Shown here one piece after another: positions 4,702-6,196 of a DNA stretch of 6,413 nucleotides. A program made the position numbers and the translations under genes. The notes under the pieces are model-generated. The model was not told the DNA's origin. It ran no database searches and saw nothing but the letters and a program-made list of their open reading frames with translations. The stretch lies in the IMG/VR virus record IMGVR_UViG_2534682295_000008, one strand, 5' to 3'. The stretch is from a virus (Duplodnaviria > Heunggongvirae > Uroviricota > Caudoviricetes). Every line of letters begins with the position of its first letter. Positions within the stretch are counted from its first letter, which is position 1.

Positions 4702-6196
4702 TCTTTCACACATTATTGCCGCAGCATTCAATGAACCGCTGCTTCTGGAGCCCGCCTATGCGCGGGTTTTCTTTTGCGCGCTCGGGCGCGAGATGGGGGC
4801 AGCAAGTCTTTCGGTACCACAGCAGCAGGTACAGCTTGATGCTCCCGGAATGCTGGCTGAAACGGACGAGTACATGGCCGGAGGTAAACGACCGGCCCGT
4901 GTTTACCGGGTGGTGAACGGTATTGCTGTACTGCCGGTGACCGGCACGCTGGTGCACCGGCTGGGGGGTATGCGGCCATTTTCCGGAATGACAGGCTATG
5001 ACGGCATTGTCGCCTGTCTTCAGCAGGCAATGGCGGATAGCCAGGTGCGGGGCGTACTGCTGGACATTGACAGTCCGGGCGGGCAGGCCGCCGGCGCGTT
5101 TGACTGCGCTGACATGATTTACCGCCTCCGTCAGCAGAAGCCGGTCTGGGCACTGTGCAATGACACGGCCTGTTCTGCAGCCATGCTGCTGGCGTCGGCC
5201 TGCTCCCGACGGCTGGTTACCCAGACATCCCGTATCGGCTCCATTGGCGTGATGATGAGCCATGTCAGCTATGCCGGTCATCTGGCGCAGGCCGGTGTGG
5301 ATATCACGCTGATTTACTCAGGGGCGCACAAGGTGGATGGCAATCAGTTTGAAGCCTTACCGGCAGAGGTTCGCCAGAACATGCAGCAGCGCATTGATGC
5401 GGCGCGCCGGATGTTTGCCGAAAAAGTGGCCATGTTTACCGGTCTGTCTGTTGATGCCGTCACGGGAACAGAGGCCGCCGTTTTTGAAGGTCAGTCCGGC
5501 ATTGATGCCGGGCTGGCGGATGAATTAGTCAATGCGTCGGATGCCATCAGTGTGATGGCCACGGCGCTGAACAGTAATGTCAGAGGAGGCACTATGCCGC
5601 AATTAACTGCAACGGAAGCCGCCGCGCAGGAGAACCAGCGAGTGATGGGGATCCTGACATGCCAGGAAGCGAAAGGACGTGAACAGCTTGCCACGATGCT
5701 GGCAGGACAACAGGGCATGAGCGTTGAACAGGCCCGGGCGATTCTGGCCGCGGCGGCACCGCAGCAGCCGGTGGCATCCACGCAGAGTGAAGCCGATCGC
5801 ATTATGGCGTGTGAAGAAGCGAACGGTCGTGAACAACTGGCGGCAACGCTGGCGGCGATGCCGGAGATGACGGTGGAAAAAGCCCGCCCGATCCTGGCTG
5901 CTTCACCGCAGGCGGATGCCGGACCCTCACTCCGTGATCAGATCATGGCACTGGATGAGGCAAAAGGGGCTGAGGCGCAGGCTGAACAGCTGGCTGCCTG
6001 CCCGGGAATGACTGTGGAGAGCGCCCGGGCTGTGCTGGCTGCGGGATCAGGTAAGGCAGAACCGGTCTCTGCATCCACAACCGCCCTGTTTGAACGCATC
6101 ATGGCGAACCATTCACCGGCTGCGGTACAGGGTGGCGTGCCACAGACGTCAGCAGACGGTGATGCGGACGTGAAAATGCTCATGGCCATGCCATGA
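4691..6196 (+). CDS. C: Head maturation protease / scaffold fusion (lambda gpC-like, S49 ClpP-like serine peptidase N-terminal part; Nu3-like scaffold C-terminal part)
   Basis: 501-aa ORF with GTG start at 4691 and GAGGAG about 10 nt upstream. The N-terminus aligns to lambda gpC (AAFNEPLLLEPAYARVFFCAL vs MAFNEPLMLEPAYARVFFCAL). Peptidase core is conserved: NGIAVLPV.GTLV, GMTGY.GI...LQQA, GAFDCAD.I.R.R..KPVWAL.ND..CSA..LLASA.SRRLVTQT.R.GSIGVMM.H, ITLIYSG.HKVDGN, TGLSV, IDAGLADELVN. The C-terminal part contains three tandem copies of a scaffold-type repeat where lambda has one clear copy, so the ORF is about 60 aa longer than lambda gpC. Confidence 0.92.
   Translation: MRRNLSHIIAAAFNEPLLLEPAYARVFFCALGREMGAASLSVPQQQVQLDAPGMLAETDEYMAGGKRPARVYRVVNGIAVLPVTGTLVHRLGGMRPFSGMTGYDGIVACLQQAMADSQVRGVLLDIDSPGGQAAGAFDCADMIYRLRQQKPVWALCNDTACSAAMLLASACSRRLVTQTSRIGSIGVMMSHVSYAGHLAQAGVDITLIYSGAHKVDGNQFEALPAEVRQNMQQRIDAARRMFAEKVAMFTGLSVDAVTGTEAAVFEGQSGIDAGLADELVNASDAISVMATALNSNVRGGTMPQLTATEAAAQENQRVMGILTCQEAKGREQLATMLAGQQGMSVEQARAILAAAAPQQPVASTQSEADRIMACEEANGREQLAATLAAMPEMTVEKARPILAASPQADAGPSLRDQIMALDEAKGAEAQAEQLAACPGMTVESARAVLAAGSGKAEPVSASTTALFERIMANHSPAAVQGGVPQTSADGDADVKMLMAMP

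Follow-up and report, generated by a model that had tools for sequence, protein, structure and literature searches.

In phage P2 gpO and in lambda C, protease and scaffold functions lie within one reading frame, and the gp8 scaffold of phage P22 ends in a helix-loop-helix that is its coat-binding domain. The lambda scaffold, Nu3, self-associates, interacts with C and B and shows a two-hybrid interaction with E (PMC3224144), and scaffold-portal and scaffold-capsid contacts are a general feature of phage assembly (PMC10275583). Closest to the locus described here is the gp5/gp6 pair of phage 21. Three repeat_region features are entered within gene 6, the Nu3 analogue, in the GenBank entry for the phage 21 head operon (M81255.1): the Tri1 box (record positions 5542-5645), the Tri box (5682-5792) and the Tri3 box (5823-5936). 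We analysed the corresponding element in a 6,413-nucleotide (nt) stretch of the IMG/VR virus record IMGVR_UViG_2534682295_000008 (hereafter the window), where a unit of 36-39 amino acids (aa) occurs three times in the Nu3-like scaffold part of a lambda-gpC-type S49 protease gene.

Both the units and their location had been proposed in an initial annotation of this DNA, and both were confirmed: the three segments are in frame, and their translation in the 4691-6196 frame gives exactly the peptides quoted there. The arrangement of units, linkers and tail is given below, with the phage 21 boxes converted to window positions and with the confidence of the structure prediction as predicted local distance difference test (pLDDT) values.

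5639-5755, + strand: repeat unit 1, aa 317-355; overlaps the Tri1 box of phage 21 (window 5661-5764)
5756-5797, + strand: linker 1 (AAPQQPVASTQSEAD), predicted flexible (pLDDT <50 at aa 357-364)
5798-5905, + strand: repeat unit 2, aa 370-405; matches the 'Tri box' of phage 21 (window 5801-5911)
5906-5938, + strand: linker 2 (PQADAGPSLRD) (pLDDT <50 at aa 409-411)
5939-6046, + strand: repeat unit 3, aa 417-452; matches the Tri3 box of phage 21 (window 5942-6055)
6047-6193, + strand: C-terminal tail, non-repeat, aa 453-501; includes the ERIMANHS stretch

The alignment of M81255.1 to the window is gapless, with an offset of +119, and the Tri boxes are therefore the same three units. The triplication is thus correct but already known: phage 21 has it annotated, many enterobacterial prophages share it, and the view that the feature was unusual or unrecorded had to be dropped. 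In the literature that we searched, we found no paper discussing the Tri boxes. What is new here is a survey of copy number (1-5), evidence of recent amplification in some lineages and the prediction of a three-helix module.

The resemblance between the units is highly significant. Unit-versus-unit Smith-Waterman scores ranged from 83 to 101, compared with an average of about 25 for shuffled sequences (z = 11-16), none of which scored as high in 1000 trials, and a hidden Markov model (HMM) of the unit detected all three with E = 1e-19 to 1e-21. An HMM-HMM comparison, which the initial annotation had proposed as a check, gave the same result: hhalign of the ortholog profiles paired units 1 and 2 with a probability of 99.0%, units 1 and 3 with 98.8% and units 2 and 3 with 99.5% (E-values from 7e-18 to 4e-23). 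The unit consensus is ILxxxEAKGRExLAxxLAxxPGMTVExAKxxLAAA, with E, A, G, R, A and L almost unchanged throughout 60 diverse units. A fourth partial unit, which had been suggested to begin at ERIMANHS, found no support, with pairwise z values of at most 0.7 and 0.1 bits against the unit profile, to which shuffled tails scored up to 10 bits. By eye, this C-terminal tail is like the tail of lambda, N15 and phi80 (TALDRLM...DLLNTPV).

The units lie downstream of the peptidase domain, in a region where a second, shorter gene is predicted in the same frame. The relevant features are as follows.

4691-6196, + strand: gpC-like open reading frame (ORF; phage 21 gp5-like head protease-scaffold), 501 aa, GTG start, from the ORF list
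5126-5569, + strand: S49 (SppA-type) peptidase domain, aa 146-293, Pfam PF01343
5582-5589, + strand: Shine-Dalgarno-like AGAGGAGG within conserved Gly-Gly codons, 5' of the internal start, from reading the sequence
5594-6196, + strand: Nu3-like scaffolding protein (phage 21 gp6 analogue), nested in frame, 200 aa, putative start ATG 5594

The gpC-like ORF belongs to PF01343 (E = 2.8e-35; 122 bits, the cut-off being 24.9) and to the head maturation protease family phrog_53 (E = 9.7e-228). Searches of PDB sequences matched it to SppA (3rst/4kwb, E = 5e-16), and the N-terminal domain of its AlphaFold2 (AF2) model matched SppA structures 4kwb/3rst in Foldseek (E = 7e-10), while the full-length model matched SppA/ClpP only, through the protease domain. 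The coding sequence of phage 21 gene 6 (5475-6077 in M81255.1) corresponds to window 5594-6196; the second phage 21 record, OL657228.1, annotates the same scaffold coding sequence, and the ribosome-binding site AGAGGAGG is annotated at the equivalent place in both records. At the sequence level, the window therefore has what is expected of a nested in-frame scaffold gene with its own putative ribosome-binding site. All three units lie 3' of the internal start at 5594 and would therefore be present in both the S49 protease (gp5) and the nested scaffold (gp6). The 'Transcription factor CII' features that OL657228.1 places under the gene are mere ttgyN6ttgy pattern matches on the other strand, and we discarded them as irrelevant.

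A Gly-Gly-(Thr/Arg)-Met motif (window 5582-5596) is kept at this place in phage 21, Gifsy-1, phi80, N15 and lambda, and its codons encode a GGAGG ribosome-binding site just 5' of an in-frame ATG. The scaffold start is annotated at this motif in N15 and phage 21. The lambda RefSeq record places the nu3 start 70 codons further upstream, at 5132, which is an inconsistency of annotation.

Over the whole gene, the gpC-like gene and phage 21 gene 5 (M81255.1) share 98.6% nucleotide identity, and they agree in the three repeats, in the positions of these and in the internal scaffold start. The proteins differ at only 10 amino acids, not counting the start codon (V if translated literally). The gene order portal, C/Nu3 analogue, shp is also shared. 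In contrast, the window has another small terminase and cos-proximal region (1-1045), and it breaks into the chromosomal gene damX after 6353.

At the DNA level the three units have diverged strongly. Pairs of units are 58-66% identical in nucleotides, with a longest exact match of 8-9 nt, and their third codon positions are only 37-40% identical, which is near saturation. Tandem Repeats Finder reported no array in 5500-6200, and the repeat is detectable at the protein level only, where the units are 54-60% identical. From this divergence we conclude that the duplication is old and that the protein sequence has been under purifying selection, in agreement with the initial annotation, which had called it an old duplication and not an assembly artefact. 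That the triplication results from an assembly or sequencing error, or from chance resemblance, is hardly credible. Nothing speaks in favour of this explanation, and the contig is not fully reliable at its far end, where the last 60 bases are damX. Against it stand the low DNA identity of the units, the presence of the gene at 100% identity in complete Escherichia coli O157:H7 genomes and at 98.6% in phage 21, and orthologous triplets in Salmonella Gifsy-1 and in other genera.

The order of the units is also conserved. Phage 21 and Salmonella Gifsy-1 carry three units in the same order, and in a comparison of E. coli, Gifsy-1 and three metagenomic relatives, units at the same position were 59-74% identical, compared with 47-54% between positions. 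In these five lineages the units are closer to their positional counterparts than to their neighbours, which dates the triplication to before the divergence of these phages. The Gifsy-1 gpC homologue (STM2605) and S49 peptidases of Klebsiella, Lelliottia and Trabulsiella likewise have three units in orthologous order, although they come from other hosts and are only about 53-72% identical overall.

We then considered how many units other members of the family carry. As the initial annotation had stated, lambda has a single copy: gpC of NC_001416 contains one unit (aa 364-398), with no second one at a permissive threshold, and phi80 and N15 have exactly one unit each. The S49 proteases of these three phages share the nested in-frame scaffold and the GG(T/R)M start motif, and lambda gpC, which is 54% identical to the window protein over aa 3-372, has the same unit (RIMGILNCEEAHGREEQARVLAETPGMTVKTARRILAAA). 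They differ from the window protein in that this unit follows a low-complexity linker of about 55 aa and in that units 2 and 3 have no counterparts. More broadly, a search of 1.84 billion representative proteins with the unit profile found at least 315 clusters at E <=0.001. Among the best 149 of the 315 clusters, which were scored for copy number, 136 had one unit, nine had two and four had three, so that a single copy is the norm in this library. The hits were of two kinds: S49 proteases of 400-550 aa that carry the unit close to their C-terminus, and stand-alone proteins of scaffold size (100-200 aa).

Around the window protein, we surveyed 120 clusters, which were distributed as follows.

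3 full units: 23 clusters, the window type
2 full units and 1 truncated: 69 clusters, the 482-aa class, with unit 2 lacking its last helix
2 units: 25 clusters, including a 451-aa class with a hybrid of units 1 and 2
4 units: 2 clusters
5 units: 1 cluster, the single rearranged sequence P0001

The class with two full units and a truncated one includes P0038, which is present on at least 1000 contigs. P0001 (657 aa) was given six units in a first scoring and five full units under a stricter criterion; it is a single sequence with a duplication of the whole Nu3 region, and we regard it as a probable product of rearrangement or misassembly, outside the natural copy-number classes. The searches behind this survey and a second one found roughly 1,400-1,700 homologues. 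The second survey, centred on a more distantly related three-unit protein, covered 113 clusters from E. coli, Salmonella, Citrobacter, Klebsiella, Lelliottia, Trabulsiella, E. albertii and E. marmotae.

3 units: 71 clusters
4 units: 38 clusters
5 units: 2 clusters
2 units: 1 cluster
1 full unit and 1 partial: 1 cluster

The initial annotation had named, as grounds for rejecting its claim, that lambda and most of its relatives already carry three units. This proved wrong for lambda, which has one, and right to the extent that three or more units are normal in a large clade. Judging from these surveys, enterobacterial prophages of this clade, among them Gifsy-1 and relatives in Klebsiella, Citrobacter and other genera, normally have three units, and the number is no peculiarity of the window.

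Larger arrays appear to have a different history. The units of four- and five-unit proteins are 71-100% identical to one another, compared with 43-60% in three-unit proteins, and we therefore interpret the larger arrays as recent amplifications. These S49 peptidases of 538-578 aa, from prophages of E. coli, Citrobacter, Salmonella, E. albertii and E. marmotae, share the architecture and the unit with the window protein, but their four to five near-identical units suggest recent amplification or homogenisation and no ancient triplication. In the group of relatives P0336, P0300, P0304 and P0307, a widespread class of 538 aa has four units with 71-91% identity, and the proteins of 568/578 aa have five, of which three are identical; these arrays point to recent amplification or concerted evolution. 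A further four-unit form has 551 aa. Taken as a series, the hybrid, truncated, four-unit and five-unit forms visibly bear the marks expected of unequal recombination, which has probably changed the copy number. In two other relatives, P0080 (721 aa) and P0084 (577 aa), the frame runs past unit 3 into unrelated tail-fibre-like sequence with Gly/His-rich repeats, which suggests deletions fusing head and tail genes in degraded prophages.

Structure prediction assigned a fold to each unit. The AF2 model of the full protein, made from an alignment of 62 sequences, had a mean pLDDT of 70 and showed every unit as three short helices, with block-mean pLDDT values of 72-86 in the units. The predicted helices were 307-323, 331-338 and 345-354 for unit 1 (block-mean pLDDT 72-82), 367-372, 381-388 and 395-404 for unit 2 (82-86), and 414-419, 428-435 and 442-452 for unit 3 (75-81). 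The linkers, rich in Pro, Gln, Ala and Ser, fell below a pLDDT of 50. The region is thus predicted to resemble beads on a string, with small helical modules as the three beads and flexible linkers between them.

This prediction bears on an alternative explanation, in which the units are mainly a passive spacer that sets the length between the protease domain (or the scaffold N-terminus) and the C-terminal tail, with no specific binding role, and replace the low-complexity Ser/Thr/Ala/Gln linker of about 55 aa found in lambda, phi80 and N15. Consistent with such a role, in those three phages a long low-complexity stretch precedes the only unit, where phage 21 and Gifsy-1 types have about 15 residues and two extra units, and nature tolerates 2, 2.5, 3, 4 or 5 units. 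However, a spacer would be expected neither to fold into three-helix modules, as predicted for each unit here, nor to keep six nearly invariant residues in 60 diverse units, and position-specific conservation is strong even though synonymous sites are saturated. The protein identity that the units retain with third positions near saturation, together with position-wise conservation among orthologs, suggests that selection acts on the sequence of the unit, beyond its length. We consider the spacer explanation unlikely, while giving it some weight.

The flexible linkers raise another alternative, in which units and linkers together are chiefly cassettes for proteolytic processing. The ILAA(A/S/G)-Pro ends and exposed linkers would then be cleavage sites of the S49 protease, which would cut the scaffold into fragments of about 45 aa, small enough to exit the procapsid. 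In line with this, every unit ends in LAAA, LAAS or LAAG followed by a Pro-rich linker of low pLDDT, the protease is SppA-like, with a best structural match (4kwb) described as self-processing, with its own C-termini in the active sites, and degradation of Nu3 is listed as a likely activity of lambda C (PMC3224144). Conservation, however, spans the whole unit and extends beyond its ends, and single-unit relatives also need to have their scaffold degraded. As the reason for the repeats, processing appears rather improbable to us, although it is compatible with the explanation that we favour below.

No family model covers the unit in Pfam or NCBIfam, and in PHROGs we found only generic scaffold, protease or unknown-function families. 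The nearest named motif was the helix-hairpin-helix (HhH), which would make the units nucleic-acid-binding elements. The Pfam HHH model gave a weak match at aa 427-450 (E = 0.093, 13.1 bits), at E <=1 three of the 60 diverse units matched HHH and three matched HHH_5 (best E = 0.0014), and the segment LAxxPGMTVExAxxIL resembles the pattern hxxhPGhGxxxAxxh. On the other hand, all scores are under the Pfam gathering cut-offs of 24 (PF00633) and 27 bits (PF14520), 57 of the 60 units were unmatched, and the Gly-hydrophobic-Gly hairpin is missing, since the loop reads PGMT, PEMT or QGMS and the second Gly is replaced by Thr or Ser. Moreover, units 2 and 3 are net acidic by sequence reading, and the scaffold acts before DNA enters the head. 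We rejected membership in the HhH families, as the window scores 13.1 bits against the required 24, and member 1 of the 60 units reaches 13.8 bits against the 27 of HHH_5; a role as nucleic-acid-binding motifs is very improbable.

The units are the Tri1/Tri2/Tri3 boxes of a phage 21-type gp5/gp6 and, weighing these explanations, we favour with moderate confidence that they act as an interaction module of scaffold and protease in the procapsid. Such a module would hold the scaffold and the protease inside the assembling procapsid, through binding of the major capsid protein and/or through self-association, and three modules (phage 21/Gifsy type) would provide a higher valency than one (lambda type). 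The protease would then degrade the scaffold, plausibly by cutting the exposed linkers, and unequal recombination between units could alter their number. We infer this role from the behaviour of lambda Nu3 and from the general part that scaffold-portal and scaffold-capsid contacts play in phage assembly. The P22 gp8 scaffold offers a functional analogy, as it also has a small helical element near its C-terminus. The unit here differs from P22 gp8 and P2 gpO in being a predicted three-helix element and in being repeated.

Several points weigh against an interaction module. The note on the Tri boxes in M81255.1 reads 'function unknown; putative'. Comparisons with solved structures revealed no similarity to any scaffold or coat-binding domain: Foldseek searches of the PDB with a single-sequence AF2 model of the 200-aa Nu3-like protein (pLDDT 64) gave nothing below E = 3.6, and PDB sequence searches with two unit profiles hit only haemoglobin and a designed repeat protein, both spuriously. 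E. coli genomes very often contain natural variants with 2 or 2.5 units, so three full units may not be required, although many such prophages may be defective, as the truncated capsid gene of Sakai Sp14 illustrates. Finally, the non-repeat C-terminal tail could instead be the real capsid- or portal-binding element.

Going one step further, the unit might be an uncatalogued three-helix mini-domain whose copy number (1, 2, 2.5, 3, 4 or 5) is an evolvable valency setting for the interaction of scaffold and protease with the capsid, tuned by unequal recombination among enterobacterial prophages. We put this forward only tentatively, as possible rather than probable. If it were true, copy number would measurably change procapsid assembly behaviour or capsid-protein compatibility. 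The effect on assembly stoichiometry or kinetics that the initial annotation had suggested is speculative. The triplication as such has little discovery value, being annotated in M81255.1 and present, within the identical protein, in many E. coli O157:H7 prophages. The value of the present description lies in an element for which there is no Pfam or NCBIfam model and no solved structure despite at least 315 clusters, and whose copies vary from 1 to 5 among close relatives. As a conserved element of lambda-type scaffolds, it bears on how lambda-like procapsids recruit scaffold and protease.

Regarding its genomic setting, the gpC-like ORF is part of a lambdoid head-gene block that fills the window, with the following neighbours in the ORF list.

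513-1022: small terminase, 169 aa
end at 2922: large terminase
2906-3112: W-like gene
3109-4701: portal
6233: start of the decoration-protein gene (shp/gpD-like), start only

This order of terminase, W-like gene, portal, C/Nu3 and decoration protein is the lambdoid one. The window is collinear with phage 21 from 1076 to 6353 and also with Sakai Sp14, and positions 1-6359 match prophage Sp14 of E. coli O157:H7 Sakai at 99.8%. Judging from these matches, the window is an Sp14/CP-933R-type prophage of E. coli O157:H7. Several complete E. coli O157:H7 genomes have the gpC-like gene at 100% identity, and it was matched in 2,032 of 5,426 complete E. coli genomes. A public collection contains the exact 501-aa protein under the name 'Capsid assembly protein of prophage CP-933R', with occurrences on at least 1000 contigs.

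Both ends of the window depart from phage 21. Positions 1-1075, which run from the cos-proximal region through the small terminase gene into the beginning of the large terminase gene, have no homology to phage 21, and the remaining head operon is about 96% identical to it, with a mosaic boundary at about 1046-1076. The cos-proximal and small terminase region matches O157:H7 Sakai Sp14. Within it, window 318-362 (45 nt) is identical to lambda bases 1-45, the left cohesive end, and the window therefore contains a lambda-type cos site 5' of the small terminase gene; the 12-nt cosN overhang is GGGCGGCGACCT. At the other end, homology to phage 21 and Sp14 stops at 6353-6359, within the decoration-protein gene that starts at 6233. 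The last 60 bases (6354-6413) match, at 100% identity, the chromosomal gene damX, a cell-division gene that in complete genomes is distant from any prophage, and the window therefore ends in a chimeric junction, due either to misassembly or to a genuine rearrangement.

In complete O157:H7 genomes that carry the gene, the major capsid gene downstream is truncated, as seen in Sakai Sp14 (9638-9904, 267 nt). The PV15-279 prophage also has a truncated major capsid gene (9948-10211, 264 nt), together with an IS3-family insertion and frameshifted terminase and portal genes. From these lesions, the Sakai Sp14 and PV15-279 prophage copies are defective, despite their intact gpC-like gene.

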